From: Gemmatimonadales bacterium
GTDB lineage: Bacteria > Gemmatimonadota > Gemmatimonadetes > Gemmatimonadales > GWC2-71-9
Reading direction: 5' to 3'
Assembly: GCA_035575675.1 (NCBI GenBank)
Contig: DATLXS010000098.1
Location: 2,641-66,640 of the forward strand
Length of the DNA stretch: 64,000 nt
Under the pieces are notes generated by a model. The model was not told the origin of the DNA. It saw only the letters and a program-made list of their open reading frames with translations, and did not search any database. Each line of letters opens with the position of its first letter. Position 1 is the stretch's first letter. Shown here in pieces: positions 12,218-39,733 of the stretch. Both the position numbers and the translations under genes were made by a program.

Positions 12218-12228
12218 ATTGAGCGGCT

Positions 12229-19302: not shown

Positions 19303-19822
19303 CGGAAGCCTCGTCTCCGCTCGCTTACTCGTGTTCCGCGTGGGAGCACTGGTGTGCGCCGCCGAGGTGGACCAAGTGCGGGAGATTCTCCCGCGCCTCC
19401 CAACGACGCGTATCCCGGGCGCGCCCCCGGTCGTGGCGGGGCTCGTGAATGTCCGCGGCACTCTGGTGACGGTCGTGGAAGGGTGGCGTGCGCTGGGCCA
19501 GGCACCGCCGGGTCCGCCCGCATCCCCCCCCGCCGAGACGTCCCAGACTCAAGCACCTGAGGCCGCGGGCTCGACGATCATCCTCGAGATGGGCAAGGGT
19601 GAGTCAGGGGCTGGGGCGACCGGAGCGCACGAGGGACAGCTGATCGGGTTTACGGTGGATGAGGTGATGGACATGCTCGCGGGTGGTGCGACGACGCTGG
19701 AGGACCGCACCGGTCTTCCGGGGGTCGATCCCACGCTGGTGCGGGCGGTCGGGCGGCGGAATGGTGAACTGTTCATCGTGTTGGACGTCGCGGCGCTGTT
19801 GGGCCCGATTCTGACTACTTAA
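19295..19822 (+). CDS. cheW: CheW-like coupling protein with Pro/Gly-rich insertion
   Basis: Trimmed to the ATG at 19295. Contains LLVFRVGALVCAAEVDQVREILP...IPGAPPVVAGLVNVRGTLVTVV and a C-terminal FTVDEV...LFIVLDV. Carries an internal low-complexity segment with a C8 run and a G-rich array. Confidence 0.8.
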   Translation: MTDGSLVSARLLVFRVGALVCAAEVDQVREILPRLPTTRIPGAPPVVAGLVNVRGTLVTVVEGWRALGQAPPGPPASPPAETSQTQAPEAAGSTIILEMGKGESGAGATGAHEGQLIGFTVDEVMDMLAGGATTLEDRTGLPGVDPTLVRAVGRRNGELFIVLDVAALLGPILTT

Positions 19823-19832
19823 GGAGCGCGCA

Positions 19833-20195
19833 GTGAGCCACACGGTTCTCGTCTGTGACGACGCGATCTTCATGCGCACGATGATCACCGACATCCTGGC
19901 GCAGGCCGGGTTCGAGATCGTCGGCGAGGCGGAGACCGGCACGCAGGCCGTCGAGAAGTATCGGCAACTCAAGCCGGACCTGGTCACGATGGACATCGTG
20001 ATGCCCGACATGGGCGGCATCGACGCGGTCCGCGAGATCGTGAAACAGGATCCCGACGCCAAGATCCTGATGTGCAGCGCCATGGGGCAGCAGGCGCTGG
20101 TGGTCGAAGCCATCCAGGCGGGTGCCAAGGACTTCGTCGTCAAGCCGTTCCAGCCCTCCCGCGTCCTCGAAGCCGTGCAGCGCGTTCTGGGCTAG
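19833..20195 (+). CDS. cheY: chemotaxis response regulator CheY
   Basis: 120 aa single REC domain. VCDDA acidic pocket, phospho-Asp in VTMDIVMP, SAMG, VVKPF. AAGGAG-like RBS upstream. Confidence 0.93.
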   Translation: MSHTVLVCDDAIFMRTMITDILAQAGFEIVGEAETGTQAVEKYRQLKPDLVTMDIVMPDMGGIDAVREIVKQDPDAKILMCSAMGQQALVVEAIQAGAKDFVVKPFQPSRVLEAVQRVLG

Positions 20196-20197
20196 CG

Positions 20198-22144: not shown

Positions 22145-22157
22145 TTAAAGGAGCGAC

Positions 22158-22775
22158 ATGGAAGACGTCCGTGATCTGAAAGCACTGCAGCTCGACGCGC
22201 TCAGAGAAGTCGCCAACATCGGCGCGGGCCACGCGGCGACGGCGCTGTCGCAGCTGACGCACCGGCGCATCATGATCTCGGTGCCGGAGATCAACATCGC
22301 CCGGCTCGAGGAGGTGCCGGGGCTGATCGGCGATCCGCAGGAAGTCGTCGCCGCGGTCCTCATGCACATGCTCGGCGATTTGACGGGACGCACGCTGCTC
22401 ATGTTCCCCGAGCCCGTCGGCCGGCAGCTGTGCGACATGCTGCTCAAGCGCCCCCTCGGGACGACCCAGGTGTTCGAGACGATCGAGCAGTCGTGCATCA
22501 AGGAGGCGGGCAACATCCTCTCGGGCGCGTACATGAACGCGCTGTCGGAGTTCATGGGGATGCTGCTGCTGCCGTCGGTGCCGAGCCTCGTGGTGGATCT
22601 CTCGGCGGCGGTCCTCACGACGACGTACCTGAACTTCGGGCACGACCGGGACTTCGTGTTTTGCGTCGAGACGGAGTTCAATATCGATGCCCAGGACGGG
22701 CTGCGCGGCCATTTCCTGCTCCTGCCCGACCTGGCGTCGCTCAAGGCGATTTTCGACGCCATTCGGTTGACTTGA
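22158..22775 (+). CDS. cheC: CheC-type CheY-P phosphatase
   Basis: 205 aa. Both copies of the CheC active-site pattern [DS]-x3-E-x2-N-x22-P are intact (DALREVAN +22 aa +P, and SCIKEAGN +22 aa +P). Confidence 0.9.
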   Translation: MEDVRDLKALQLDALREVANIGAGHAATALSQLTHRRIMISVPEINIARLEEVPGLIGDPQEVVAAVLMHMLGDLTGRTLLMFPEPVGRQLCDMLLKRPLGTTQVFETIEQSCIKEAGNILSGAYMNALSEFMGMLLLPSVPSLVVDLSAAVLTTTYLNFGHDRDFVFCVETEFNIDAQDGLRGHFLLLPDLASLKAIFDAIRLT

Positions 22776-25471
22776 CGGTCTCAGAGCGTGACGTAGCGGT
22801 CCTGAGGTCCTTTGCCCGCCGGATCGATCCCTCCGATGCGGGCGCGCATAACAATCTCGGCGTTCTCTACTACCAAAAAGCCCTCGTCCCCGAGGCGATC
22901 GAGCAGTTCACCCGCGCCCTCGAGCTCGACCCGCGCATGCAGGTCGCGCAGCGGAATCTCGAGATCGCCTACCACAATACCGGGTACTACGACCGCCGCG
23001 TGGCCGAGCTTCAGGAGAAGCTGCGCAGCGCGCCCGACGAGCGCGACGCGCGCTGGGAGCTGGGCCGCACGTATGCGATCCTGGGCGCCTCCGAGGAGGC
23101 GGTCGCCGAATTCGAAGAGCTGCTGGCACACAAGCCGAAGGACGTGGCGGCGATCATCCAGCTCGGACTCGCCGAGAAGGCCCGCGGACGTCTGGAAGTG
23201 GCGACCGAGTGGTTCCTGCGGGCCGTCGAAGACGAGCCGGACTCCTCCGTCGTCCACTTCTACCTTGGCGAGGTCTACTACAACCGCGGGCTGAACGAGC
23301 CGGCGCTGACCGCCCTCGAGCGCGCCGTCTCGCTCAATCCCGACAACGCGAACGCGCATTACCTGATGGCGTTCGTGCTGGGCGACATGGGGCGGCATCA
23401 GGACGCGCGCGCCGCGTCGAAGCGCGCCATCCAGCTGAACCCGCCGCTGGCGCGCGCGCAGACCAACCTGTCGCTGGAGCGCTACCGCGCCGAACGCCAG
23501 TCGGCCGAGCACCGCCTGCGCGAGCACCCCGCGCCCGAGGTCGCCGAGGGCAGCGAGCTCGCGCATTACAACCTCGGCCTCGCGTTCCGGCAGAAGGGCT
23601 ACTACGCCGAGGCGCTGCGCGAGTACCGCCTCGCGATCGAGCGCGGCGAGGATCGCAGGCTGGTGCGCCAGGCGATGGCGGAAGTGCATCTCCTCAAGCG
23701 CGACTTCACCGATGCGCTCGAGCTGTACGAGTCGCTGATCCATGAGATCCCCGACTCGCCCAAGCTCTGGAACGAGCGCGGCGTCGTGTTGCATCAGGCG
23801 GGCCGAACGGCGGACGCGCTGACGTCCTACCGCCAGGCGACGGAGGTCGATCCCCGCTACGCGCTCGCGTGGAACAACATCGGCGTCGTGCTGGCGCATC
23901 AGGCCGATACCGAAGATGCGATCGAGGGATTTCGGAAAGCCCTGCAGCTGTCGCCGGCGTTCGTCGGCGCCCGCCTCAACCTCGCGCTGCTCCTGACCCA
24001 CCTGCGCCGCTTCCAGCTCGCGCTCGAAGCGTATCGCCAGGTGCTGGCGGAACAGCCGGGCTCGGCGCCGGCGTGGAACGGGGTGGGACTCGTGCTCGTC
24101 GAGCTGAAGCGCTTCCCCGACGCCCGGAACGCCTTCGTCCGGGCCGTCGAGGCCGACCCGCAGAACGCGGGCGCCCACTACAACCTCAGCTTCACGCTCT
24201 CGAACCTCGGCGACTACGACGGCGCGCTGCGCGCGACCAAGCGCGCGCTCGAGCTGGACCCGTATTACGTGTCGCAGAAGTTCGCGCTGGCGATCGATCT
24301 GCAGTATGAGACGGTCGCGATCGGCATCGTGCCCGAGATCTCGGCCGACGTCGCGGCCGAGAGCCTGGGCGGCGAATTCGCGTTCGACCAGCGGCTGATC
24401 GACAACATCTTCCAGGAGCTGGAGCCGCCCGCCGGCGCGGCCCAGGCCGCGCCGGCCGGGCTGGCCAAGCGGGCCGACGATCCGCTGGCCCTGGCGCGCG
24501 ATTATGTGAGCAAGGGAATGATGGACCTCGCCGTGGCGGAGGCGATGCGCGCCGTGCAGCGCGGCGCGGACCGGGGCCAGGCCGCCACGCTGATCGGCGA
24601 CAGCTATGCCCGGCGCGGCCTGCACGGGGAGGCGCTGGAACGCTACCGCGAGGCGCGCACGCTCGATGCCGCGAACGCCCCGGCCGCGCTCGGCGAGGTG
24701 AAGAGCCTGCTCGCCGTGCACCGCTCCGCCGAAGCGCTGCCGCTCGCCGAAGACCTGGTCGCCAAGGCGCCCGAAGACGTCGAGGTGCTCGTCGCGGCCG
24801 CGAAGGCGCGCGCGGCGACGGGCGATGCGGCCGGCGCGCTGACGGCGCTGCGGCAGGCCCAGACCCGCGCGCCGGACCGGGCCGATCTGCACAAGCTGCA
24901 GGGCGACATCGCCCTGAAAGTCGGCGACCGCCAGGCCGCCCGCGCGGCGTACCGCTCGGCGCTCGACCTCGATGAAGGGTTCGTGCAGGTCTGGCTCGAT
25001 CTCGGGCGGCTGCACGAACAGGACGAAGAGTGGGTGGAAGCGCAGCGCGCGTACGAAGCGGCGCTCGAAGCGCTGCCGACCTTCCACGAGGCGGGGCTCG
25101 CGCACGCGGACCTGCTCAGGCGCACGGGGGATCTGCGGACCGCGGTCGTACGGCTCGCCGAGATGCTGGAGCAGGATCCGTACGACATGGACGCGCTGCT
25201 GCTGCTCGGTCGCACGCTGCTCGACGACAAGCGCGGCGTCGAGGCGCTCGAAGCGTTCCGGCGCGCGCTGAAATTCGATCCCGAGCACACCGGTGCACTG
25301 TTTTACCTGGGCGTGACGCTCGCGAAGCTGCAGCGCTACACCGAAGCGGTGGCCGCGTGGGACCGCGTGACGCGCATCGATCCCGGCGGGCCGTTCGCGC
25401 AACGTGCGCGCATGCACGCGCGGACCGCCGTCGACTTGCAGCACATCTTCTCCACCTCGGACGCGGCCTAA
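22772..25471 (+). CDS. large tetratricopeptide-repeat protein
   Basis: Listed ORF 22430.. trimmed to the TTG at 22772 (TTGA overlap with the cheC stop). 899 aa of near-continuous TPR units (repeated A..Y..AL.L.P pattern). No TM and no MCP signalling motif. Confidence 0.8.
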   Translation: MTVSERDVAVLRSFARRIDPSDAGAHNNLGVLYYQKALVPEAIEQFTRALELDPRMQVAQRNLEIAYHNTGYYDRRVAELQEKLRSAPDERDARWELGRTYAILGASEEAVAEFEELLAHKPKDVAAIIQLGLAEKARGRLEVATEWFLRAVEDEPDSSVVHFYLGEVYYNRGLNEPALTALERAVSLNPDNANAHYLMAFVLGDMGRHQDARAASKRAIQLNPPLARAQTNLSLERYRAERQSAEHRLREHPAPEVAEGSELAHYNLGLAFRQKGYYAEALREYRLAIERGEDRRLVRQAMAEVHLLKRDFTDALELYESLIHEIPDSPKLWNERGVVLHQAGRTADALTSYRQATEVDPRYALAWNNIGVVLAHQADTEDAIEGFRKALQLSPAFVGARLNLALLLTHLRRFQLALEAYRQVLAEQPGSAPAWNGVGLVLVELKRFPDARNAFVRAVEADPQNAGAHYNLSFTLSNLGDYDGALRATKRALELDPYYVSQKFALAIDLQYETVAIGIVPEISADVAAESLGGEFAFDQRLIDNIFQELEPPAGAAQAAPAGLAKRADDPLALARDYVSKGMMDLAVAEAMRAVQRGADRGQAATLIGDSYARRGLHGEALERYREARTLDAANAPAALGEVKSLLAVHRSAEALPLAEDLVAKAPEDVEVLVAAAKARAATGDAAGALTALRQAQTRAPDRADLHKLQGDIALKVGDRQAARAAYRSALDLDEGFVQVWLDLGRLHEQDEEWVEAQRAYEAALEALPTFHEAGLAHADLLRRTGDLRTAVVRLAEMLEQDPYDMDALLLLGRTLLDDKRGVEALEAFRRALKFDPEHTGALFYLGVTLAKLQRYTEAVAAWDRVTRIDPGGPFAQRARMHARTAVDLQHIFSTSDAA

Positions 25472-25474
25472 CGT

Positions 25475-26611
25475 ATGGCGATCGAAGGACCGCTTCGCGA
25501 GCTTGGGATCCACGACGTCTTCCAGCTGCTCGACTTGAGCCGGAAGACGGGTGCGCTGCGCGTCACCTCGGAGCTGCGCCACAACGAGGGCAAGATCTAC
25601 TTCGATAACGGCGTCGTGGTGTCGGCGGAGATTCGCAGCAACCCCCACCCGCTCGGCGCGTTGCTGCTGCGCACCGGCAAAATCGCCGAGGCCGATCTCG
25701 AGCGGGCGCGCGACATGCAGCAGCGGCAGGGCGACAAGCGCAGACTCGGCGAGATCCTCGTGGCGCTCGGCGTCATCACCCAGCGCGAGGTCGAGCGCCA
25801 GATCCACTTCCAGATCGAAGAAGTCGTCTTCGAGGTCATGAGCTGGAACGAAGGCTACTTCTCGTTTGCGGAAGAGGCCGAGAGCAAGGTGCCCACCGAG
25901 GTCACGGTCCGCATCCCGGTGGAAGCGCTCTTGATGGAAGGCGCGCGCCGCATCGATGAATGGTCCCGGATCGAGAACCGCATTCCCCATGTCGGCGTGG
26001 TGCCGTCGCTCGCGCCGCCGCCCGAAGGCGGCGGCGGCGAGCTGGATCTCCTGCCGCCCGAGTGGGAAGTGCTGGCGCTGATCGACGGCGATCGCTCCGT
26101 GCGGGGTCTCGCGACGGAGCTTGGCCGGTCCGATTTCGAAGTCGCCAAGACGCTGTTCGGGCTCGAGAGCGCCGGCGTCATCGTGCTGGTGGATCCGGGG
26201 ACGGCCAAGCGCGGGCGTCCGAGCGCCGCGGGCGAGCTCACGGAGCAGGTGGCGAAGGCGGAGCGTGCGCTCGTCGCGAAGGACCTCGACGCCGCCCGCG
26301 CCGCCGCCGAACAAGCGGGCAGCATGCAGCCGCACGACGCGACGATTCATCTTCTGCTCGGCCGCATCCATCTGGCGCAGGGGCACGCGTCCGCCGCCGC
26401 CGAGGAGCTGCGGCGCGCGCTCCGGCTCGATCCGTTGCTCGCCGCGACGCATCGCCACCTGGGATTCGCCCTCGTCGCGATGGGCCGGTTCGGCGAAGCC
26501 GTGCAAAGCTGGGACCAGTGGGAGCGCTTGGCGCGCACGACGGAAGAGGAGGCGCACAAACCGGACGTGCAGCGCGCCCGCGACGCCGCGCGAGTGTTCA
26601 GCAATGGCTGA
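25475..26611 (+). CDS. PATAN/DUF4388 domain protein with helical MshEN-like insert and C-terminal TPRs
   Basis: 378 aa. N-terminal GPLRELGIHDVFQLLDLSRKTGALRV...GKIYFDNGVVVSAE is the DUF4388 signature. Also carries paired RLG..LV..G motifs, a wHTH-like LALIDGDRSV segment and TPRs at the C-terminus. Confidence 0.8.
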   Translation: MAIEGPLRELGIHDVFQLLDLSRKTGALRVTSELRHNEGKIYFDNGVVVSAEIRSNPHPLGALLLRTGKIAEADLERARDMQQRQGDKRRLGEILVALGVITQREVERQIHFQIEEVVFEVMSWNEGYFSFAEEAESKVPTEVTVRIPVEALLMEGARRIDEWSRIENRIPHVGVVPSLAPPPEGGGGELDLLPPEWEVLALIDGDRSVRGLATELGRSDFEVAKTLFGLESAGVIVLVDPGTAKRGRPSAAGELTEQVAKAERALVAKDLDAARAAAEQAGSMQPHDATIHLLLGRIHLAQGHASAAAEELRRALRLDPLLAATHRHLGFALVAMGRFGEAVQSWDQWERLARTTEEEAHKPDVQRARDAARVFSNG

Positions 26612-27428
26612 CGAGATCCGCGCGCTCTCGGCGCAGCTCGCCCAGGATCCGCAGAGCCTCGTGTTCTTGCGGCTGGGCGAAGCCTTGCGCCGCAAGGGAC
26701 AGCTCGACTCCGCCACCCGAGTCGCGATGAACGGGCTCGAGCGGCATCCGCATCTCGCCGACGCGCACGACCTGTTCGCGCGGATCCTGACCGACAAGCA
26801 CGACTACGCGCGCGCGTTCGACGAGTGGGACATGGCCGTCCGGATCGCGCCCAACCATACCGGCGCCCTGAAGGGGCTCGCCTTCCTCTACTTCAAGGTC
26901 GGCGATATCGCCCAGGCCGAAACCCATCTCGAGCAGGCGCGCAAGGTCGAGCCGGACGATCCGACCATCGATCAGGCGTTTGAGATGATCCGCGGCGGGG
27001 CACATGCGCCGCCCTCCGCCGCCCCCTCGCCGCCCCCCGCCGCCCCAGCGCCGCCAGCGGGTGCGCTCGATGAAGCGCGCGTTTTCGCGGGATTAGAGGG
27101 CGCCAACGAAGGCCTCCTGCTCATCGACGGCGCGGGACGCGTCCTGGGTGGGTCGATCCGCGATGGATCGGGCTCGGATGTCACCGACAGCGTTGCCGCC
27201 TATCTTGCCGGCGTCTCGCAGGAGGCGGCGCGGACCGCGAAGCTGCTGGGGCTGGGAGCCTGGAACGGTTTGTCGGCGGAAGGGCAACACGGCAACGTGC
27301 ACCTGGCGCATCCGACGCCTGAAGCGCTGCTCCTCGTCGTCCGCGAGCGCGGGACGCCGCTCGGCCGCCTCGCGATTCTCGCGCAGCGGGCGACGTCGCT
27401 GGCGCGCCGCTGGCTGGAGCAGCAATGA
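26604..27428 (+). CDS. TPR - Pro/Ala linker - Roadblock/LC7 fusion protein
   Basis: Listed ORF 26121.. trimmed to the ATG at 26604. TPR N-terminus (LVFLRLGEALRRKGQLDSA...), then a Pro/Ala-rich linker. The C-terminal ~110 aa has a Roadblock-like pattern (GLLLIDGAGRVLGGS...ALLLVVRERGTPLGRL). Confidence 0.65.
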   Translation: MADEIRALSAQLAQDPQSLVFLRLGEALRRKGQLDSATRVAMNGLERHPHLADAHDLFARILTDKHDYARAFDEWDMAVRIAPNHTGALKGLAFLYFKVGDIAQAETHLEQARKVEPDDPTIDQAFEMIRGGAHAPPSAAPSPPPAAPAPPAGALDEARVFAGLEGANEGLLLIDGAGRVLGGSIRDGSGSDVTDSVAAYLAGVSQEAARTAKLLGLGAWNGLSAEGQHGNVHLAHPTPEALLLVVRERGTPLGRLAILAQRATSLARRWLEQQ

Positions 27429-27775
27429 CGAAGGGACCGCTCGATTTGATCACCCGCGTGCGTGGCGTGCGCGGCGCGATGCTGGTCTCGGCGGAGGACG
27501 GCCTCGTCGTGGCCGAGCAGCTCATGGAGGGGATCAAGGGCGGCGCCGTGGCCGCGCTCGCCGCGAGCCTCGCCGGCCGGCTGCGCCGGGCGATGGAAGC
27601 GGCGGGGACCGGGACGAGCGTCTTTTGGCACCTGCAGGCGGAGCAGGGAGCGCTGCTGGTCGTTCCCGGCGGGCACAATGCCGGCGGCATCCTGGTCGTC
27701 GCGGTGGCGGAGCCCGATGTGAACATCGGCCTGGTGCGCCTCGAGCTGCTGCGAGCGGCGGAGACGATGGTATGA
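27425..27775 (+). CDS. Roadblock/LC7 domain protein (MglB paralog, MglC-like size)
   Basis: 116 aa. VRGVRGAMLVSAEDGLVVAE...ILVVAVAEPDVNIGLVRLELLRAAE. ATGA overlaps at both ends. Confidence 0.8.
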   Translation: MTKGPLDLITRVRGVRGAMLVSAEDGLVVAEQLMEGIKGGAVAALAASLAGRLRRAMEAAGTGTSVFWHLQAEQGALLVVPGGHNAGGILVVAVAEPDVNIGLVRLELLRAAETMV

Positions 27776-28248
27776 GTCAACAGACCCGCGCCGTCGAAAA
27801 CTGGACGCTGCAACCGCTCACCGACTTCGTGCGGGAAGCATCGGCGCGTCTGGTCCTGGTGCTCACGCCGTCGGGGCAGGTGCTGGCGCAATCGGGATTC
27901 TCGCGCGCCGTCGATGTCATGTCGTCCGCGGCGCTGGCGGCGGCGATCGTCGCCACGACCGGCGAGCTGGCGCGCCAGCTGCGGCAGCCGCCCTTCGCGG
28001 CGCTCAGCCATCAGGGCCCCAAGACCGGGTTCTTCCTGGCGACGTTCTCGACCGAGCGCGGCACGCTGGCGGTGCTCGCCGTCTACGATCTCGATGTTTC
28101 ATCGCTCGGCTTGGTTCAGTTATTCTATGAGCAGCTTGCGGCGGACTTGAAGACGGCTAGCCCAAAGGGGGCGGTCCCCAAGCAGGTGCTCGCGGCCGAC
28201 TTCGAGCGCGAGTTGACGGACAGCCTCAACACGCTGTTTGGGAGATAG
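27772..28248 (+). CDS. mglB: MglB-like Roadblock/LC7 GTPase-activating protein
   Basis: Listed ORF 27148.. trimmed to the ATG at 27772. 158 aa with a Roadblock core ending in SSLGLVQLF, plus a C-terminal extension ending DSLNTLFGR, as in M. xanthus MglB (SLGLVRLR ... DNLFSE). Lies immediately upstream of mglA. Confidence 0.8.
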
Positions 28249-28250
28249 CG

Positions 28251-28853
28251 GTGTCCCTGGTCAACTTCACGACCCGCGAGATCACGTGCAAAATCGTCTA
28301 CTACGGACCTGGGCGGTCCGGAAAGACGACCAATCTCCATTACATCTACGGCCGCGTGCCGGAAACTCGGCGCGGGCGCATGGTGTCGCTCGCCACGCAG
28401 ACCGACCGCACGCTGTTCTTCGACTTCCTGCCGATCGATCTGGGCCAGATCTCCGGATTCTCGACGCGGTTTCAGCTCTACACCGTTCCGGGCCAGGTCT
28501 ATTACAACGCCACCCGGCGGCTGGTGCTGCAGGGCGCGGACGGCGTGGTCTTCGTCGGGGACAGTCAAGCCCGGCAGCTCGATGAGAATGTCGAAAGCCT
28601 GCAGAACCTCCAGAGCAATCTGCTCGAGCACGGCATCGATGTGCGCACCATGCCGCTGGTGATGCAATACAACAAGCAGGACCTGCCCGCCGAGCTGATC
28701 CTGAGGCAGGAGGACCTCGACGACGCGCTCAACTTCCGGAGCGTGCCGAGCTTCGCAGCCGACGCGCTGCACGGCAGAGGGGTGTTCGAGACCCTCAAGT
28801 CGATCTCGGAGCTCGTGCTCAAGAAGCTCGCGGCGGGAACCCCCGCGACATGA
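28251..28853 (+). CDS. mglA: Ras-like polarity GTPase MglA
   Basis: 200 aa, collinear with M. xanthus Mgl[18 protein letters not shown]-loop, intrinsic Arg in [12 protein letters not shown], MglA-specific YTVPGQ (Thr in place of the G3 Asp), NKQDLP. Confidence 0.93.
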
Positions 28854-30802
28854 CCAGCACGCTCAATCCCCGCTTCACGTTCGACACGTTCGTGGTCGGC
28901 GCCGCGAACCGCCTCGCCGTCACCGCCGGGCGCACCGTCGCGGAGAATCCGGGCTCGGCCTACAACCCGCTCTTCATCTATAGTGGCTCGGGGTTGGGCA
29001 AGACGCACGTGCTGATGGCCATCGGGCACGCCGCCAAGGTCATCGCGTCGCAGTTGAACATCGAGTACCTGACGTTGGACGAGTACGTTGAGGCGCTCCA
29101 CGCCGCGATCGCGGCGGGGCAGGGCGACGCCTTCCGGCGCCGGTTCCAGAACGTCGATGTCTTGCTCGTCGACGACGTGCAGTTCCTCACCAATCGCAAG
29201 GAGATGCAGACCGAGTTGCTCCGCCTGACCGAGGCGCTGCAGCAGGGCGGTCATCAGATCGTGCTCGCGAGCGATCGCCCCCCGGCCGAGATCGCGGACC
29301 TGGACGAGCGTCTCATCTCGCGCTTTTCCGGCGGGCTCGTCGTCGATATGGGCATCCCCGACTACGAAACGCGCGTCGCCATTCTGCGCCGCAAGGCCGA
29401 GGAGCGCGGGACGAAGTTCCAGCCGGGGATCCTCGAGACGGTCGCGAAAGTCGAGTATCCGAACGTCCGCGAGTTGATGGGCGCGCTCAATCGTCTGATC
29501 GCCTTCCAGGCGGTGAACGACACGCCGATAAACGCGGATGCGGCGAGCAAGGTGTTGGGCATCCCTACCGCCGCTTCACCGACCGCCGCCTCATCTACCG
29601 CCGCTTCACATACCGCCGCCTCACCCGATGAATTCAGCCAGTTCCTGACCGACGTCACCGTGACCGTGGGCAAGGCCGTCGAGGCGTGGCGCGCGCGCGT
29701 GACCGAGGCGGTGATGCGCTGGGAGGGAGAAGGCTACCGGACGGGCCGGCTCGAAAAGCTCCTCGATCAGGAGACGCCGGCCGCGGTGGACGAAGTGATC
29801 GCGTCGTACGTGCGCGACGTGGAACGGCTCAAGGCGCTCGAGGCGGAAGTGGCGGTGCTCGATCCCCAGGCCGCGGGTGAGAAAGTCTTCCGCGATCCCG
29901 AGCACATGGACGCGGCCGAGGCCGCCGCCGCGAAGGTTCGCGACGGCGCGGCGCCGCCGCCGGCCCCGTCAGGCGCATTTCCGCTCGACGCGTACGTCGC
30001 CGGGCCGTCCAACGAGGTGGCATTGAACGCCGCGCGCGACTGCGTCGCGAAGCCCGGGAAGAAATACAATCCCCTCGTGATCGTCGGCCGCAGCGGGCTC
30101 GGCAAGACGCACCTGCTCAACGCCATCGGGCTCGAGCTCGCGAAAAAGAAGAACGCGGTGGTCGCCTGCCTGTCGACCCAGCAGTTCGTCGACGAGCTGA
30201 TTGCGGCCATCGACGGCAACCGGGTGGACTGGTGGCGCGCGCGCTATCGGCGTGCGACCGCGCTGCTGCTCGACGACATCCATCTGCTCGCCGGCAAGGA
30301 GCGCACGCAGGAAGAGCTGTTCAACCTTTTCAATCAACTGGTCGACGCCGACCGGCAGCTCATCTTCACGGCGCCCGCGCACCCGAACACGCTCGAGGGG
30401 CTCGAGGAGCGCATCGTGTCGCGGCTCGAAGGCGGGCTCGTGACGGAGATCGCGGAGCCGGACAAGGAGCTGCGCCGGAGCATGCTCGAGCGCCTGCTCA
30501 CGCACCAGCACGTGGCGCTCGAGCCGGCGCTGCTCGACTACCTGGCGGACCGGCCCATCGATTCCGTCCGCAACCTGACCGGCGTGGTCCAGCGCGTGGT
30601 CGAGGCCGCCGCGGCGCAGGACGCGCCCGTGACGGCGGGTCTGGCGCGCGATGTGCTGGAGGGAGCGCCTCCGCCGCGCCGCACCGCGGGACTGCGCACC
30701 AGCGGCATCGTCGTGTCGAGCGCCGGCGGCGTGCGCAGCCGGGAGAAGATGGTCTGGGACTGGCCCGCCGCTGCTGATCGCGTCATCGAGGATCTGCGCT
30801 GA
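28850..30802 (+). CDS. tandem DnaA-type AAA+ protein (two DnaA domain-III modules; no domain I or IV)
   Basis: 650 aa. Module 1 (res 6-222): [54 protein letters not shown]. Module 2 (res 377-590): [44 protein letters not shown] saw no DnaA C-terminal HTH signature. ATGA overlap with the mglA stop. Confidence 0.85.
29567..29626. repeat. 15-nt x4 in-frame tandem repeat (TAAS-x pentapeptide)
   Basis: ACCGCCGCTTCACCG ACCGCCGCCTCATCT ACCGCCGCTTCACAT ACCGCCGCCTCACCC encodes [20 protein letters not shown] in the linker of the double-DnaA protein. Confidence 0.9.
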
Positions 30803-32418
30803 TGGCCATCAAGGGCTCGCTCAAGGAAGCGTCGCTCCCCGACGTGCTGCAGCTCCTGGCGCTGGGGCAGAAAACCGGCTGCCTGTCGATCGCCGACCGC
30901 TCCAACTTCGGCTACATCTATTTCGACCGGGGCCGGATCTCCTACGCGTCGATCGTGAACCGCCGCGATCGGCTCGGCGACATCCTCGTGAAGCACGAGA
31001 AGATCACGCAGGACCAGCTGGACGCCGCGATCCACCGCCAGGCGAAAGAGCGCGACAAGAAGCTGGGCGAGATTCTCGTGCTCCAGAGCGTGCTCACGCA
31101 GCAGGAGCTCGAGCGCTACATGCGCATGCAGATCGAGGAATCGGTCTACTATCTCTTCACATGGACGCAGGGCACGTTCAACTTCGAAGCCGACGTCCGC
31201 CCGGAGCAGCAGGACTTCCTCGTCTCGATCAACCCGGAGTCCCTGCTGCTCGAGGGCGCGCGGCGCGTGGACGAGTGGGGCCTGATCGAGAAAAAGATCC
31301 CGTCGTTCGATCTGATCTTCCTCGTGGACCGCGACCGCCTGGCCATCAGCGACGCGAAGCTGACGGAAATGCAGGATCGCCTGCTCCCGCTGCTCGACGG
31401 CTCGCGCGACGTCAATCAGGTCATCGAAGATTCCGGCCTGGGGGAATTCGAGGTCGGCAAGGCGCTCTACGGCCTCGTCACCGCCGGCTTCCTGCATCGC
31501 GCCGGCCGCACCGCCAGCGCCGAAGACGTGAAGATGACCGACGCGCGGGTGGAGGAGCACCGCAACCTCGGCATCGCCTTCTACAAGACGGGCATGCTCG
31601 ACGAAGCGGCGCGCGAATTTCGCCGCGTCGCCGAGCTGCGCGCGTCGGATGCCAACGCGCACTTCTTCATCGGCCTGGTCGCGCTGAAGCAGGCGCGCTG
31701 GCGCGAGGCGATGGAGGCGCTGCGGCTCGCCGCCGAAAAAGGCGGGTCACGGCCCGCCGTGCTCCACAATCTGGGGCTCGCCTACGAGCAGGTCGGCCGG
31801 CTGGAGGATGCCGAGGCGGCCTACTCCGAGGCGGCCACGCGCGCGCGCACCGATCCGCGGGTGTACGTGGGATGGGGCATCGTCGCGCTGAAGCAGGGCG
31901 ACCATGCCAGCGCCGCCGGGCGGCTCGACCGCGCCAAGGAGCTGTTCGCCGACAAGGTGCCCCCGATCTGGTTCTGGGCGCGCGCACTCACCGCGGCGGC
32001 GGCGGGCGATTTCGAGACGGCGGAACAGGTGGCCGTGCAGGCCGTGGAAACGCATCCGCACAACGGGGTGTTGCGCAACAATCTCGCCGTGCTGCACGAG
32101 CTGGCCGGCGCGCTGCCGCAAGCCGAGGCGCTGGCGCGCGCCGCGCTGCAGGACGAGCCGTCCCTGCCGCAGCTGTCCAAGAATCTCGGCGACCTGGCCT
32201 ACCGCGGCTCGCGCTACGATGAAGCCTGGGCGCTGTATCAGCGCGCGATCGAGCTGTCGCCCGAGCTGGGCGATGACGTCTACTTCAAGCTTGGCAACAT
32301 CGCCTACAAGCGAAACGAGCGCGACCAGGCGAGCGAGCTGTGGCGGCGCGCGCTCGAGCTCAATCCCAAACACGAGCTCGTCAAGGCCAATCTGGACACC
32401 CTGAGCAGTTTGTCGTGA
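30802..32418 (+). CDS. PATAN/DUF4388 domain protein with helical MshEN-like insert and long C-terminal TPR array
   Basis: 538 aa. GSLKEASLPDVLQLLALGQKTGCLSI...GYIYFDRGRISYAS signature, paired [RK]LG..LV motifs, wHTH-like LLPLLDGSRDV segment, then TPRs. Paralog of 25475..26611. Confidence 0.8.
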   Translation: MAIKGSLKEASLPDVLQLLALGQKTGCLSIADRSNFGYIYFDRGRISYASIVNRRDRLGDILVKHEKITQDQLDAAIHRQAKERDKKLGEILVLQSVLTQQELERYMRMQIEESVYYLFTWTQGTFNFEADVRPEQQDFLVSINPESLLLEGARRVDEWGLIEKKIPSFDLIFLVDRDRLAISDAKLTEMQDRLLPLLDGSRDVNQVIEDSGLGEFEVGKALYGLVTAGFLHRAGRTASAEDVKMTDARVEEHRNLGIAFYKTGMLDEAAREFRRVAELRASDANAHFFIGLVALKQARWREAMEALRLAAEKGGSRPAVLHNLGLAYEQVGRLEDAEAAYSEAATRARTDPRVYVGWGIVALKQGDHASAAGRLDRAKELFADKVPPIWFWARALTAAAAGDFETAEQVAVQAVETHPHNGVLRNNLAVLHELAGALPQAEALARAALQDEPSLPQLSKNLGDLAYRGSRYDEAWALYQRAIELSPELGDDVYFKLGNIAYKRNERDQASELWRRALELNPKHELVKANLDTLSSLS

Positions 32419-33194
32419 GCAAAGCTCCTCCGGAGCGAGGCTTCGAAGCGCTGACGGAAAAGATCTCACGCGAGCGGGGAGTCAGCTGCGGGTCGTACAA
32501 GGATAAATGCATGAAGCGCCGCATCGCGGTGCGCATGCGCGCCCGCGGCGTCCATACCTACGAAGACTACGGCAAGATTCTCGATCACGACGCGCACGAG
32601 TACCAGGAGCTCCTCGACGCGCTCACGATCAACGTCACCAAGTTCTTCCGCAACGCCGAAACCTGGACCGCGCTCCGGCCCCATCTGGAGGCGATCGCCC
32701 GGAGACGTCCCACACTGCGGGTCTGGTCGGCGGGATGCGCCTCGGGCGAGGAGCCGTACACGATCGCCGTGCTCATGACGGAGCTGGGCGCCCAGGGTGT
32801 CATCGACGCGACGGACGTCGATCGATTGAGCCTCGAGCGCACCCGGCAGGCGCACTATCCGGACGGGGCGTTCACCGAGATGCCGTCGCACCTCAGGCGC
32901 CGCTATTTCGAGGGCGGCCAGCCGGTGCCCGAGGTCCGCGCGCTGGTGCGCGTCCAAAGCCACGATTTGATGCGCGAGCGTCCCCCGCATCCGCCGTACG
33001 ACCTGATCGTATGCCGCAACGTCGTGATCTACTTCGAGCGCCAGGCCCAGGAGCGGCTGTTTCAGACCTTTGTGGATGCGCTGGCGCCCGGGGGCGTGCT
33101 CCTGCTCGGAAAAGTCGAAACCCTGTTCGGTCCCGCGCGCGAGCACCTCACCCTCGTCGATCCGCGCGAGCGGATTTACGTACGGCCCGGGTGA
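32415..33194 (+). CDS. cheR: chemotaxis protein methyltransferase CheR
   Basis: Trimmed to the GTG at 32415 (GTGA overlap). Motifs TKFFRN, VWSAGCASGEEPYTIA, CRNVVIYF. Confidence 0.92.
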   Translation: MSKAPPERGFEALTEKISRERGVSCGSYKDKCMKRRIAVRMRARGVHTYEDYGKILDHDAHEYQELLDALTINVTKFFRNAETWTALRPHLEAIARRRPTLRVWSAGCASGEEPYTIAVLMTELGAQGVIDATDVDRLSLERTRQAHYPDGAFTEMPSHLRRRYFEGGQPVPEVRALVRVQSHDLMRERPPHPPYDLIVCRNVVIYFERQAQERLFQTFVDALAPGGVLLLGKVETLFGPAREHLTLVDPRERIYVRPG

Positions 33195-33673
33195 AAGAAG
33201 TCATCGTCAAAGTCGCCGACTGGGCCGCCGAACGTGGCGATGGCGTCCTGATCACCCTCGGACTCGGTTCCTGCGTCGCGATCATGCTGCACGATCCGCA
33301 AGCCAAAACGGGCGCGATGGCGCACGTCCTGCTGCCGTCGACCAGCCTCGCGCGCGATCTCACGAACCGCGCCAAGTTCCCGGAAACGGCCGTGCCGCTG
33401 CTCATCGAGCGGCTCAAGGCGCTCGGCGCGGACCCGCGGCGGCTCGTGGCGAAACTGGCCGGCGGCGCCCGCATGTTCAGCCAGCTCGTCACGCCCGGCA
33501 CCATCCAGATGGGCGAGCGCAACGTCCTGGCGTCGCGCACCGCGCTCCGCGTCGCGGCCATCCCGGTCATTCGTGAGGCGGTGGGCGGCGACCGCGGCCG
33601 CAGCGTGCGGTTTTACGTGAAAGACGGCCGGGTAGAGATCCGGTCGGTGGGCGTCGATGCCGACGTCATCTGA
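33191..33673 (+). CDS. cheD: chemoreceptor glutamine deamidase CheD
   Basis: Trimmed to the GTG at 33191 (GTGA overlap). Motifs [31 protein letters not shown]. Confidence 0.9.
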
Positions 33674-34748
33674 CGCGTCCGGCCGCCCAAGCGTGGTCGT
33701 CGCCGACGACAGCGCGCTGATGCGCCGGGTGCTGGTCGATGTCCTCGGCGCCGAGTTTCGCGTCGTCGCGACCGCGCGCGACGGTCTCGACGCGATCAGC
33801 AAAGTGCACGAGCACAGGCCCGACGTCGTCACGCTCGATCTCGAGATGCCGCGGCTCGATGGGCTGGGCGCCATCGGCTACATCATGTCCGAGTCGCCGC
33901 GCCCGATCGTCGTCGTCAGCGCGCACGCTGGGCCAGGCACGCAGTCCGCGATTCGCGCCCTCGAGCTGGGCGCGGTGGAAATCGTCGCCAAACCGCCCCC
34001 TGAAGTCTTCGGTCATCCGCGCGCCGCGCTCGAGGCGCTGGCGCCGGAGCTCATCGGCGCCGTGCGCCGGGCGCTCGCGGCAGACCTCTCGCACGTCAAG
34101 GTGTTGGCGCGCCCGCCGGCGCCGGTGGTTCATCCGCCCGAGCACGCGCTGCGCGGGCGCGCCGTGCTCGCCGTGGGCGTCGCCGCCTCGACCGGTGGTC
34201 CGCGCGCGCTCGCCGACGTCGTGCCGCGCCTGCCGACGGGCCGCGGCGCCGCGATCTTCATCGTGCAGCACATGCCGCCGAAGTTCACGCGCAGTCTCGC
34301 CGAGCGGCTCGACTCCATGAGCCCGTTGCGCGTCGTCGAAGCGGCCGACGGCACCCCGATTGTGGCTGACACGGCGTACGTGGCCCCGGGCGATTATCAT
34401 ATGCGGGTGCGTTCTGCTCCCGACGGACCTGTCATCGCGCTCGACCAATCCGCGCCCCTGTGGGGCGTCCGGCCCGCGGCCGATCCCTTGTTCCGCTCCA
34501 TCGCCGAGGTCTATGGCGCGCGCGGCATTGGGGTCGTGCTCACGGGCATGGGGCGCGACGGGGCCAGCGGGCTGCGCGCGATGCATGACGCCGGCGGCAC
34601 CGGGCTCGCCCAGGATCGGGAAACGGCGGTGATTCCCGGGATGCCGGTGGCGGCGGTGCAGGCGGGCGGCGTCGACGCGGTCCTGCCGCTCAGTCAGATT
34701 GCCGACCGCGTCGCAGCCGAGTTGCTGCGGCGGGTGGGAAACCGATGA
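33657..34748 (+). CDS. cheB: protein-glutamate methylesterase CheB (REC + esterase)
   Basis: 363 aa. REC domain with VVADDS and VTLDLEMP. Esterase domain with ASTGGP, VQHMPP and GMGRDGA. Confidence 0.93.
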
Positions 34749-35164
34749 AGGGTTATTTGCTGGTGCGTTCCGAGGGAAAATCGTACGGCCTGCCGGTCGC
34801 CCGCGTGCTCGAGGTGGGTGACGCCACGGAAGTGCTTGCCATTCCGCGCAATCTGCCCGCGGTGCGGGGCCTGACGCCGCTGCGCGGACGGCTCGTGCCG
34901 CTGATTCATCTGGGCGCGCTGCTCACGGGGAGCGAAGCACCCCCCGCCGGCGGCCACGCGGTGCGCACGGTCGTCCTCGTCGAGCTCGGCGCGAGCGGGC
35001 GGCAGGTCGCCTTGGAAGTCGATGACGCCGATGCGGTCGTCCGCGAGCAGCCGCTGCCCGTGCCGCGCGGCCAGGCGCTGCCGTGGGCGGCCGGCGTGGC
35101 GGAGCAGGAGGGGGGATTGGTGCCGATCCTGGACCTCGACGCGCTCGGGGATCGCATTACGTGA
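34745..35164 (+). CDS. cheW: CheW-like coupling protein
   Basis: 139 aa. [20 protein letters not shown]...[24 protein letters not shown] overlap with the cheB stop. Confidence 0.8.
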
Positions 35165-35640
35165 CGACGACCACGACGCTGAGCTCGGGCGGCGACGATG
35201 TGCAGCTGGTCACCTTCAAAGTGGGCGGCCAGGATTTCGCGTTCAACATTTTTCAGGTCGAACGCATTCTGCGGTATGAAGCGCCCGCGCCGTTGCCGAA
35301 GGCGCCCGAGTTTCTCGAGGGCGTGCTGCAATATCAGGGCGGTGCCGTGCCGCTCATCGATCTGCGCAAGCGACTCGGCGCGGAGGCGCCGCTGCGCGAG
35401 GACACGCGGACCGTCATCCTCGAGTTCGATGGCGGCAAGATCGGCATGATTGTCGACACCGTGACCGAGGTGATGCAGGTGTCCGCGCAGGCGGTCACGC
35501 CGCCGCCGGGCATCGTCCGCGGGCTGGCGGCGGAGTACATCGCCGGCCTCCTCGTGCAGAACGGACGCACGATCGTCGTCCTGAATACGAACAAGCTGCT
35601 GAACTCGAAAGAGAAACTGGCTTTGCAGGGAGCGACCTGA
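35161..35640 (+). CDS. cheW: CheW coupling protein
   Basis: Trimmed to the GTG at 35161 (GTGA overlap). LVTFKVGGQDFAFNIFQVERIL...PEFLEGVLQYQGGAVPLIDLRKRLG...IGMIVDTVTEVM. Confidence 0.88.
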   Translation: MTTTTTLSSGGDDVQLVTFKVGGQDFAFNIFQVERILRYEAPAPLPKAPEFLEGVLQYQGGAVPLIDLRKRLGAEAPLREDTRTVILEFDGGKIGMIVDTVTEVMQVSAQAVTPPPGIVRGLAAEYIAGLLVQNGRTIVVLNTNKLLNSKEKLALQGAT

Positions 35641-36509
35641 TGGCTGAAACGCCGGTCGCGGCGCTGCGCCGGGAATACGATGCCATCGCCCGGCAGCTCG
35701 AAGGGGGCGGCCCCTCGGGCAACGCCGAGCGCGAAGCCGCCAAACGGGAGATCATCGCCTTTTTCAAGAAGGTCGACGGGATGCTGGGCGAGATGACGCA
35801 GTTGAAGGACGACATCCGCCAGCTCGTCGATCGCTACAAGCAGCTGGCCGCCGACACCAAGCAGGCCGCCGCGCCCGAGTTCACCGGGCAGCGACCGGTC
35901 CTGCATGCCGATCATATCGGCGCGACCACGTTCATCGAAAAAGGATGGAGTCTGATCTCGTTGGGCGACCACGCCGGCGCGATTCAAGCGCTCACCAAGG
36001 CACTCCAGCTCTCGCCTGGGGAGACGCAGGCGGAATCGCTGCTCGGCTGGGCACAGATGCTGCACGAAGACTACGACGATGCCCTCGGCACCTTCCAAAA
36101 AGTGCTGATGAAGGAGCCCGCGAATTCCCTCGCGCGCATCAACGTCGGCTACATCTGTCTGAAGAAGCGGATCTTTGGCGAAGCGATCGAGCATCTCTCG
36201 AAGGCGATCCGGCTGGACAACGACAAGAAGGCGACGCTGTACGCCCATTTCTATCTCGGGCTCGTCTACCTGCAGCGCGAGATGTTCGAGGACGCGGAGA
36301 CGTTCTTCGAGAAGACCATCAAGCTCGGCCCGAACCTGATCGAAGCCTATTACGAGCTGGGACGCGCGCACTGGTTCGGCGGCGACCAGGACAAAGCCAA
36401 ATCCACCTGGGCGGACGGCTTCAAGGCGAACAAGTTCAATCCCTGGGGCAAGAAGTGTCAGGAGATGCTGGAGCGTGTCGCCAAGGGCGAGGAGCCGCCG
36501 CGAGAATAG
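35640..36509 (+). CDS. coiled-coil + TPR protein
   Basis: 289 aa. N-terminal helical/coiled region, then 4-5 TPR units. TGATG junction with cheW. Confidence 0.75.
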   Translation: MAETPVAALRREYDAIARQLEGGGPSGNAEREAAKREIIAFFKKVDGMLGEMTQLKDDIRQLVDRYKQLAADTKQAAAPEFTGQRPVLHADHIGATTFIEKGWSLISLGDHAGAIQALTKALQLSPGETQAESLLGWAQMLHEDYDDALGTFQKVLMKEPANSLARINVGYICLKKRIFGEAIEHLSKAIRLDNDKKATLYAHFYLGLVYLQREMFEDAETFFEKTIKLGPNLIEAYYELGRAHWFGGDQDKAKSTWADGFKANKFNPWGKKCQEMLERVAKGEEPPRE

Positions 36510-37405
36510 CGCTGCTTGCCCTGCTGCTGCAGGGTTCGGTTGCCCCGTCGCATCCCCCCGTTGCCATCACCGTTGGGCGCGTGACCGCGATTGCCTGGCC
36601 GACGCAGGAGGGGCTCGCCACATCGCTCGCGGAGGTCGCCGATCGTGCGCGCGACTTCCCCGGCATCGGCGCCATGCCCGACCGTCCCATCCGGCTGATC
36701 CTCGCGCCGACGCGCGCGCAGTACGACTCGCTCACGCGCGGCCGGCTGCCGCTCTGGAGCGAAGGCGCCGCGTTCCCTGACGCCGGCACGATCGTGCTGT
36801 TGACCGACCGGCCGTCCGCCCGTCCGGCCGTCCTTCGTCACGAGCTCGGCCACCTCGCGCTGCGCTGGCACGTCGGTCGCTACGTCCCCCTCTGGTTTGA
36901 AGAAGGCTATGCCGCGGTCGCGGCCCAGGAGTGGGACCGGCTCGACGCGTTGCGCCTGAACTGGCAGCTCGCGCGCGGCGTGCGCATGGATCTCGACGAC
37001 GTCGATCGGGCGTTGCGGGGCGCGCGGGGCGATGCGGAGACGGGCTACGCGCTCGCGACGACCGCCGTGCTCCTGCTCGAGCGCTGGGGCGGCGATCGCG
37101 GACTCGCGCCGCTGCTCGCCAGCCTGCGCACGGCCGAGTCGTTCGATGCGGCGCTGCGCGTGACCTATCACGTCACAGAAGGCGATTTCGAGCTGCGCTG
37201 GCAGCGCGACGTCGGCTCACGCTACGGCTGGCTGTCGTGGCTGGCGGCGCTCGGCTTCTTCTGGCTGGCGATCGGCGCGCTGCTCGTCGCGCTGATCGGG
37301 CTGCGGCGCAGCCGCGACCGGCGCAAGCGCGCCGCACTGGAGGCGGAGGGCGCCGCCGAGGCGGACGGAAGCCAACTGCTTGACGATGTTGGGATTAACG
37401 AATAG
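36455..37405 (+). CDS. membrane-anchored HExxH (gluzincin-like) protein
   Basis: HELGH plus downstream FEEGYA (putative third zinc ligand). Signal-like RIALLALLLQGSVA near the N-terminus and a C-terminal TM (LSWLAALGFFWLAIGALLVALIGL). Start uncertain: the GTG at 36455 is the first canonical in-frame start and overlaps the upstream gene by 55 nt. Confidence 0.6.
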   Translation: MSGDAGACRQGRGAAARIALLALLLQGSVAPSHPPVAITVGRVTAIAWPTQEGLATSLAEVADRARDFPGIGAMPDRPIRLILAPTRAQYDSLTRGRLPLWSEGAAFPDAGTIVLLTDRPSARPAVLRHELGHLALRWHVGRYVPLWFEEGYAAVAAQEWDRLDALRLNWQLARGVRMDLDDVDRALRGARGDAETGYALATTAVLLLERWGGDRGLAPLLASLRTAESFDAALRVTYHVTEGDFELRWQRDVGSRYGWLSWLAALGFFWLAIGALLVALIGLRRSRDRRKRAALEAEGAAEADGSQLLDDVGINE

Positions 37406-39598: not shown

Positions 39599-39672
39599 GG
39601 GGCTGTAGCTCAGCTGGTTAGAGTGCCGGTCTGTCACACCGGAGGTCGCGGGTTCGAGCCCCGTCAGCCCCG
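39599..39672 (+). tRNA. tRNA-Asp (anticodon GTC)
   Basis: 74 nt cloverleaf folded by hand. Acceptor GGGGCTG/CAGCCCC, anticodon stem CCGGT/ACCGG with loop CTGTCAC, T-loop TTCGAGC. Confidence 0.92.
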
Positions 39673-39692
39673 CCTCAAGGTTCCGATTGCAA

Positions 39693-39728: not shown

Positions 39729-39733
39729 GGAGC

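Follow-up and report, generated by a model that had tools for sequence, protein, structure and literature searches.

Introduction

To our knowledge, domain III of DnaA is regarded as a replication-specific engine, and apart from Hda and the helicase loaders it has no well-known offshoots. The present analysis deals with a 64,000-nucleotide stretch of DNA from a Gemmatimonadales bacterium (GCA_035575675.1, contig DATLXS010000098.1, positions 2,641 to 66,640 of the forward strand), called the window here, and with one gene in it, at positions 28850 to 30802, whose 650-residue product carries two DnaA domain-III modules in one chain. Judging from its architecture and its conserved gene neighbourhood, this protein, designated DnaA2x, is almost certainly not a replication initiator but a re-use of the DnaA ATPase core. 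What is new is an initiator-clade AAA+ protein in a new architecture and a new context. In a full-text literature search, neither a tandem domain-III protein nor a DnaA-like part of an MglA system nor an MshEN-DnaA fusion was found to be described. This agrees with a preliminary description of the window, made from the DNA letters only, which knew of no fusion of two DnaA domain-III modules and of no MglA-linked DnaA paralog. In addition, neither Pfam nor NCBIfam holds a model dedicated to the DnaA2x family.

As in DnaA, both modules of DnaA2x are initiator-clade AAA+ cores with lids, in which Walker A, Walker B, box VII and sensor II are recognisable. Unlike DnaA, the protein has neither domains I and II nor the helix-turn-helix of domain IV, and it has two ATPase modules, a new middle domain and a C-terminal motif; its gene lies in a polarity/signalling operon and not in a dnaA-dnaN context (80 syntenic and six distant loci). 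The lack of domains I and IV and the non-origin context place DnaA2x outside DnaA proper. DnaA2x also resembles Hda and HdaA in being a DnaA-related AAA+ protein without domain IV, and the PDB Hda entries 3sc3 and 3bos are weak matches. However, it is excluded from Hda because it is a tandem and not a single module, because its Hda score is under the cut-off and because it has no N-terminal clamp motif; its gene context is also different. The best curated match of module 2 (residues 379-604) is TIGR03420 Hda, at 182.1 bits against a cut-off of 194.8, and a beta-clamp-binding motif (QL[SP]LPL-like), sought by regular expression in the 25 N-terminal and 60 C-terminal residues, occurs in none of 71 family members. 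The DnaC/IstB loaders are excluded because DnaA2x falls far under their family cut-offs (NF038214 IstB, 96 bits against 200; DnaC, 28 against 357; DnaI, 48 against 228), and a Pfam IstB_IS21 match (63 bits) lies beneath the much stronger Bac_DnaA match.

Other described systems resemble the locus or the tandem layout. p97/Cdc48, NSF, ClpB and other tandem (type II) AAA+ proteins also have two AAA+ modules per chain, and Foldseek matches DnaA2x to p97 with an E value of about 1e-13. Unlike the p97 type, DnaA2x belongs to the initiator clade and not to the classical clade, the query-normalised TM-score is about 0.27-0.29 and the identity is 15%; ring formation and threading are not expected. Like the MglA/MglB module of Myxococcus and Thermus, the locus has a true mglA and an mglB-like Roadblock gene upstream of DnaA2x, but in contrast to the described MglA systems a gene for a DnaA-type AAA+ protein is overlap-coupled between mglA and a gene for a PATAN-tetratricopeptide repeat (TPR) protein. 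The neighbouring PATAN-TPR proteins bear the tandem motif of the MshEN receptors of type IV pilus and type II secretion ATPases, whereas DnaA2x itself has no MshEN domain, and binding of cyclic di-GMP by the PATAN-TPR proteins is predicted. Genes for MglA and MglB have been noted in the vicinity of PATAN genes, and Roadblock proteins have been predicted to regulate NTPases (PMC4316618). PATAN response regulators of Synechocystis bind the type IV pilus motor (bioRxiv 10.1101/2021.06.11.447907).

Architecture of DnaA2x

The features of the DnaA2x gene are as follows.

28850..30802, plus strand: DnaA2x, 650 amino acids; open reading frame (ORF) with ATG start, two PF00308 stretches, end-to-end homologs of 640-690 amino acids down to about 31% identity
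28859..29557, plus strand: module 1, DnaA-type AAA+ core and lid, residues 4-236 (8bv3 alignment, Foldseek)
29558..29629, plus strand: disordered Ala/Ser/Thr/Pro linker, residues 237-260 (predicted local distance difference test score, pLDDT, below 50 over residues 239-261)
29630..29947, plus strand: family-specific helical middle domain, residues ~261-366 (conserved columns, AlphaFold2)
29978..30661, plus strand: module 2, diverged DnaA/Hda-type AAA+ core and lid, residues 377-604 (similarity to module 1, TIGR03420)
30734..30799, plus strand: C-terminal motif after a disordered stretch (conservation in 71 sequences)

Pfam assigns PF00308 (Bac_DnaA) to two stretches of DnaA2x with an E value of 2.7e-103. 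No match to PF08299 (domain IV) or PF11638 (domain I) was found in the whole protein, and the linker and tail, scanned separately against Pfam at E values up to 10, gave nothing DnaA-like; as a positive control, the canonical DnaA P0219 matches PF08299 at 6.5e-26. Module 1 aligns with domain III of Bacillus subtilis DnaA (8bv3) ungapped, with an E value of 4e-59 and 44% identity. Module 2 is 34% identical to module 1 (E value 3e-44), and the alignments of both modules to DnaA domain III contain no more than five gap positions; the aligned region includes the initiator-specific helical insertion. Foldseek pairs each module with the same domain III of 8bv3 at a target-normalised TM-score (TMt) of 0.94. 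An AlphaFold2 model built from a 71-sequence alignment (pLDDT 85, predicted TM-score (pTM) 0.48) consists of two AAA+ cores with lids, a helical middle domain and disorder at residues 239-261 and 608-630.

These results bear out the preliminary description on several points. It had read the protein as two DnaA domain-III modules without domain IV, on which Pfam, the 8bv3 alignment and Foldseek agree, and the profile searches for domains I and IV, together with the structure prediction that it had proposed and a fold search, uncovered no hidden domain IV. Each motif that it quoted was located where it had placed it: GSGLGKTH (residues 46-53), LLVDDVQFL (105-113), SDRPP (141-145), ERLISRF (153-159) and NVRELMGAL (205-213) in module 1, and GRSGLGKTH (413-421), LLLDDIHLL (472-480), ERIVSRL (520-526) and SVRNLTG (572-578) in module 2. 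It had also noted that the start of the ORF overlaps the mglA stop, and the junction reads ...gcgacATGAccagc, in which the ATG of DnaA2x overlaps the stop of the 200-residue upstream mglA by 4 nt (ATGA). A defence-system reading of DnaA2x was tried and rejected, as PADLOC gave matches at the level of the P-loop only (mad8, 27 bits over 33 residues).

Residue conservation was scored in alignments of 29 and 71 members, in 28 distant representatives and in 33 members of a group at about 55% identity. In both modules, at least 90% of sequences retain the Walker A Lys (K51/K419), the Walker B Asp pair (D108-D109/D475-D476) and the sensor II Arg (R207/R574). Both box VII Arg fingers are universal in the two closer clades, including 33 of 33 members of the ~55%-identity group; of the 28 distant representatives, 12 have R158 in module 1 and 23 have R525 in module 2. 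Both modules carry the residue set expected of an AAA+ ATPase, and their ATP-binding residues are intact. Module 2 also keeps the canonical 11-residue segment that includes K483-E-R485, and I451. We take I451, K483 and R485 to correspond to the single-stranded DNA (ssDNA)-contacting residues I190/K222 of B. subtilis and K243/R245 of Escherichia coli. The corresponding positions of module 1 are H84 and R116-K-E, and the three positions of module 2 are partly kept in distant members.

The linker of about 150 residues and the tail of 60 residues had been described as lacking any trace of domain I or IV. That is correct, but neither region is filler, as the linker holds a conserved helical domain and the tail a conserved motif. 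The disordered beginning of the linker is encoded in part by a 15-nt tandem repeat at 29565-29623 (three overlapping 29-nt copies), which specifies TAAS(P/S/H) repeats and probably accounts for the length variation of 645-655 amino acids among close relatives. The middle domain that follows has the pattern DEFxxFLSxV...W...RWxxEGxRTxRLExLL...FRDPD in the alignments of 29 and 71 members, where G295 is invariant and F265, W291, T298, D349 and P350 occur in at least 90% of sequences. AlphaFold2 folds it on its own with a pLDDT of 86; it has no match in Pfam and no fold match in the PDB (best Foldseek E value 4.9). A hidden Markov model of this domain retrieves the long variants P0187, P0228 and P0231 and does not retrieve canonical DnaA or the MshEN and TPR fusions described below. 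After a further disordered stretch (residues 608-630, pLDDT below 50), the protein ends in the motif RSREKxVWxWPxxxDRxIEE, in which at least 90% of the 71 sequences have E632, K633, W638 and P639. The same motif also ends the three long variants, P0184 and P0192. DnaA2x probably binds its partners through the middle domain and the tethered C-terminal WP/acidic motif.

Distribution of the family and age of the tandem

Homologs more than 90% identical to DnaA2x are carried by contigs in the hundreds, and a second set lies at about 55% identity. A representative-level HMMER search extended the family to dozens of 50%-identity clusters of proteins of 640-690 amino acids, which align from residue 1 to 650 at identities that fall as low as about 31%. 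Wherever a cluster member has a named source, it is Gemmatimonadales or Gemmatimonadota. A genome scan with the middle domain (query, a 7-sequence alignment; one genome per GTDB species) identified a relative of DnaA2x in 381 genomes. The best 80 of these 381 genomes, which also supplied the 80 loci used for synteny, are all Gemmatimonadota metagenome-assembled genomes (MAGs) except for one bin labelled Myxococcales. The contig in that bin (DASWGQ010000203.1) shows the complete gene order of Gemmatimonadales, at 69-92% identity, and is therefore probably mis-binned.

In a crude neighbour-joining tree of the modules (without support values), the first modules cluster together and the second modules cluster together across the family. 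The exception is P0184, the most distant member, whose module 1 joins the canonical and fusion modules. Because the two modules form separate clades, the tandem is older than the diversification of the family; this phylogeny had been proposed in the preliminary description, and it indicates that the tandem is real and ancient. The same description had argued from nucleotide divergence that the modules are not an assembly duplication, and no long nucleotide repeat common to module 1 and module 2 was found. Misassembly or recent duplication is ruled out by the lack of such a repeat, by the many independent contigs and by the module tree. The DnaA2x family is thus real, ancient and Gemmatimonadota-wide. 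A search with P0267, which has DnaA_N and a domain III 59% identical to module 1, retrieved Alphaproteobacteria-like DnaAs and no Gemmatimonadota ones.

Gene cluster and its conservation

In the window, DnaA2x lies within a cluster of genes on one strand with overlapping starts and stops.

19250..22775, plus strand: cheW, cheY, cheA, cheC (Pfam CheW, Response_reg, Hpt/P2/H-kinase_dim/HATPase_c/CheW, CheC)
22772..25471, plus strand: large TPR protein of about 900 amino acids (many TPR families; conserved in 69 of 80 loci)
25475..26611, plus strand: PATAN (DUF4388)-TPR protein 1 with MshEN-type cyclic di-GMP motif (PF14332, E value 3e-33; NF053729, 42.2 bits)
26604..27428, plus strand: TPR and Roadblock protein (TPR families, PF03259; start candidate 26604)
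27425..27775, plus strand: second Roadblock/LC7 protein, 116 amino acids (PF03259, E value 9e-10; 7f8m Robl_LC7 protein)
27772..28248, plus strand: mglB-like Roadblock/LC7 gene (PF03259; Myxococcus xanthus MglB 6h5b, E value 1e-8)
28251..28853, plus strand: mglA, 200 amino acids (M. xanthus MglA 5ymx, E value 1.2e-72)
30802..32418, plus strand: PATAN (DUF4388)-TPR protein 2 with tandem MshEN-type cyclic di-GMP motif (PF14332, E value 2e-38; NF053729, 48.9 bits)
32415..35640, plus strand: cheR, cheD, cheB, cheW, cheW (Pfam; overlapping start candidates; order conserved in related loci)
35640..37405, plus strand: TPR protein, then MA-clan peptidase-like protein (TPR families; PF13485, 26-28 bits, under the cut-off of 32.4)

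On the strength of its 5ymx match, the 200-residue gene upstream of DnaA2x is a genuine MglA. The ATG of the mglB-like gene at 27772 overlaps the preceding stop, and its product matches NF052242 MglB weakly, far under the cut-off. The start of PATAN-TPR protein 2 abuts the DnaA2x stop (TGATG). The MA-clan peptidase-like protein (36455-37405) has HELGH in its translation and a C-terminal hydrophobic helix, and a further TPR gene lies beyond it. No receptor (methyl-accepting chemotaxis protein) gene for the Che set was found among the cluster ORFs (19250-37405) scanned with Pfam, and dnaN did not turn up in the ORFs of the window that were scanned, nor in the distant loci's gene tables; no search was made for oriC itself.

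From cheC through cheW, nearly every gene overlaps the stop of its neighbour by 1-8 nt. The cluster is bounded by a yggS-divIVA-pnp-ileS-lspA-rluD block (12229-19302) and by the dcw cluster (rsmH, ftsI, murE, murF; 39623-45765). Among the distant loci listed below, L087 and L088 retain the upstream block from yggS to rluD, of which L084 has the ileS-lspA-rluD part, while adjacency to dcw is retained only in the window and L084.

The gene order of the window recurs in all 80 Gemmatimonadales loci by tblastn, with gaps at contig ends. A mglA was found in 75 of the 80, and the 4-nt overlap (ATGA or GTGA) between the mglA stop and the DnaA2x start is present at every scorable junction (74/74). The distance from the DnaA2x stop to the PATAN-TPR start is -1 to +1 nt in 73 of 73 loci. 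The distant loci have the following neighbourhoods.

L084 (P0150), 36% identity: mglB-mglA-DnaA2x-PATAN-TPR kept; no cheA, cheR, cheD, cheB or cheW in the locus
L085 (P0192), 35% identity: Roadblock - DnaA2x - PATAN-TPR - MA-peptidase
L087 (P0187) and L088 (P0231), long variants that share the middle domain and tail: Roadblock - DnaA2x - PATAN-TPR - MA-peptidase and no more
L081 (P0184), 31% identity, G+C content 49%: cheW-cheY-cheA-(STAND-like ATPase)-cheW-cheC-TPR-PATAN-DnaA2x; no mglA

A PATAN gene adjoins DnaA2x in all six distant loci, and a Peptidase_MA_2 gene comes after PATAN-TPR in L084, L085, L087 and L088. The MA-clan peptidase seems to be the fourth gene of a conserved core of Roadblock, DnaA2x, PATAN-TPR and MA-type peptidase. 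In L081, no mglA was found within 10 kb upstream. The ATPase gene between cheA and cheW in this locus (4035-4853) encodes a 272-residue AAA_22/nSTAND-like protein.

From these neighbourhoods, the constant partner of DnaA2x is the PATAN protein, usually with Roadblock and the peptidase, and MglA and Che are lineage-specific additions. The preliminary description had placed the protein in a GTPase/chemosensory system. The Gemmatimonadales gene is indeed embedded in one, with the mglA overlap at every junction scored, but MglA and Che are not its deepest partners, and one or both are absent beside members of 31-38% identity. The co-occurrence with mglA that it had proposed to survey holds for 75 of the 80 Gemmatimonadales loci and for L084, whereas L081, L085, L087 and L088 keep Roadblock and/or PATAN only.

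Cyclic di-GMP motif and other DnaA domain-III fusions

Both PATAN-TPR proteins of the window exceed the 38-bit cut-off of NF053729, the NCBIfam model named 'cyclic di-GMP-binding domain, MshE-related' (42.2 and 48.9 bits). In the PATAN region of both, at residues ~57-113, the motif RLGxxLVxxGxIxxxxLxxAxxxQ occurs twice in tandem, and we take this stretch to be the helical insertion described for PATAN domains. The MshEN-type motif is kept in the PATAN-TPR genes of L084, L085, L087 and L088 and is degenerate in that of L081. The PATAN-TPR proteins are predicted to bind cyclic di-GMP.

DnaA domain III was also identified in two other kinds of fusion. P0207 (1990 amino acids) and P0211 (1876 amino acids) contain two DnaA domain-III modules besides an MshEN domain; in P0207, the MshEN domain is followed by one module, about 1200 amino acids without assignment and the second module. 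The gene for P0207 and three further MshEN or MshEN-DnaA genes are flanked by pilD on one side and pilB/pilT/pilC/pilS/pilR on the other. This type IV pilus cluster, with its four consecutive MshEN and/or DnaA domain-III genes, lies at 4309-15923 of locus L086 (GCA_030620115.1, JAUXFG010000024.1). P0255 (L089, 3-2633) and P0243 have N-terminal TPR repeats joined to one DnaA domain III and lack domain IV. Neither the middle domain nor the tail motif is present in the MshEN and TPR fusions, and the MshEN-DnaA fusions are for this reason a family separate from DnaA2x. DnaA domain III is paired with the MshEN motif and TPR three times, in two fusions and in one overlap-coupled neighbourhood.

Discussion

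We put the probability at about 0.5 that DnaA2x is an ATP-dependent oligomerising switch or scaffold of a cyclic di-GMP/Roadblock/MglA polarity module. The protein would be a non-initiator descendant of DnaA, with two initiator-clade AAA+ modules, a helical domain between them and a tethered short motif at the end, and it would serve as a nucleotide-dependent switch or scaffold in a cytoplasmic polarity/signalling module. The constant partners in this module would be a Roadblock (MglB-like) protein, a PATAN-TPR protein as the predicted cyclic di-GMP binder and a membrane MA-type peptidase, to which the Gemmatimonadales version would add MglA, extra Roadblock and TPR proteins and the Che pathway. 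ATP-bound modules may assemble head to tail like DnaA, through the better-conserved Arg finger of module 2. The middle domain and the C-terminal WP/acidic motif may dock partners, for which a TPR groove is the obvious candidate. The assembly state could be set by cyclic di-GMP through PATAN, by MglA-GTP or by a Roadblock protein, and what is controlled in the end would be a polar machine, with type IV pili as the most plausible one.

Several findings weigh against this reading. The pTM of the AlphaFold2 model is 0.48, and the relative arrangement of the modules is not confidently predicted. The Arg finger and the sensor-I Asp of module 1 are gone from many distant members and the sensor-I Asp is missing from module 2, so that competence for ATP hydrolysis is uncertain. 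In its similarity to B. subtilis DnaA, module 1 equals the canonical DnaAs of other phyla (44-46%), which would also fit the retention of DnaA-specific interactions. Lastly, there are no pil genes among the scanned ORFs of the window, and for that reason type IV pili are proposed as the output by analogy and from a family of DnaA domain-III fusions other than DnaA2x.

The retained likeness to DnaA could instead reflect a role in replication. In that case DnaA2x would mimic a DnaA dimer and co-assemble with, cap or stimulate ATP hydrolysis in DnaA filaments, in a manner like that of Hda in regulatory DnaA inactivation (RIDA) or of Soj, and would be placed at the pole by Roadblock, PATAN and MglA. 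We consider this unlikely. It would agree with the near-canonical module 1 (44% identity to B. subtilis DnaA, ungapped, TMt 0.94), with a module 2 whose best curated match is Hda and which keeps R525 and the canonical 11-residue segment, and with the position of the locus beside divIVA and, in Gemmatimonadales, the dcw cluster. However, that neighbourhood may be inherited synteny, as L087 and L088 have no dcw adjacency, and the recurrent partners are MshEN, TPR, PATAN and pil genes and not replication genes. The beta-clamp-binding motif is absent from all 71 members, the scanned window ORFs and distant-locus gene tables contain no dnaN, and the Arg finger and sensor I of module 1 decay in distant members. 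The preliminary description had suggested a link to replication or cell-cycle state; nothing in these data supports a link to replication, and the suggestion stays speculation. Gemmatimonadota are known for budding-type division, and a more doubtful, spatial form of the idea has DnaA2x tethered at the pole or division site by Roadblock and PATAN-TPR (with MglA in Gemmatimonadales), tuned by cyclic di-GMP and either co-assembling with DnaA or binding unwound origin DNA. If true, it would couple polarity or second-messenger state directly to initiation.

Equally doubtful is a filament bound to nucleic acid, in which the ATP form would polymerise on ssDNA or RNA like DnaA domain III, DnaC, IstB and TnsC, and the nucleoid would be a matrix or positional cue for polarity proteins. 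The close alignment of both modules to DnaA domain III, with five gap positions at most, and the ssDNA-contact positions I451 and K483-E-R485 in module 2 point in this direction; the H84 and R116-K-E of module 1, the partial loss of the module 2 residues in distant members, the lack of a domain to anchor double-stranded DNA and the absence of DNA-related genes among those found nearby all point away from it. Given that a Peptidase_MA_2-like gene with HELGH belongs to the conserved four-gene core, DnaA2x might also be a substrate adaptor or remodeller for this membrane peptidase, as an AAA+/protease pair. This is highly improbable, since the peptidase gene is never overlap-coupled to DnaA2x, PATAN-TPR always intervenes and the Foldseek likeness to p97-type tandem AAA+ proteins is generic (query-normalised TM-score ~0.27). 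Moreover, initiator-clade AAA+ modules form open spirals and are not known to have pore loops as in unfoldases. Hardly any weight is given to DnaA2x being the, or a second, replication initiator, or an artefact of assembly or annotation. JGI/IMG labels many members as the initiator, and DnaA2x scores 510 bits against the DnaA equivalog model TIGR00362, whose cut-off is 343.9. That score, however, is the sum of two domain-III matches, each covering about profile positions 101-336 of 437 (residue 2 of DnaA2x aligns to position 101), and the cut-off is passed because the scores of the two modules add up. The protein has neither domain I nor domain IV, the same architecture recurs in 381 genomes and on independent contigs numbering in the hundreds, and the modules are long diverged, with no common nucleotide repeat. 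The preliminary description had likewise concluded that DnaA2x is not the initiator, and the absence of domains I and IV by profile and fold, and of dnaN in the scanned tables, is in line with this.

The present names of the family carry a risk for annotation. NCBI lists its members as 'DnaA/Hda family protein' or 'DnaA ATPase domain-containing protein', and JGI/IMG often as 'chromosomal replication initiator protein DnaA', which may produce false calls of a second dnaA and mislead origin prediction in Gemmatimonadota MAGs. In this phylum, DnaA domain III has been duplicated, is found without a DNA-recognition domain and is fixed phylum-wide in a small-GTPase/Roadblock/PATAN/TPR module. From the separate MshEN and TPR fusions, it seems that the initiator ATPase has been re-used more widely than noticed so far, in polarity or motility signalling. 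DnaA2x is a candidate new component of MglA systems, and it offers a testable tie between cyclic di-GMP, a GTPase switch and an ATPase switch.

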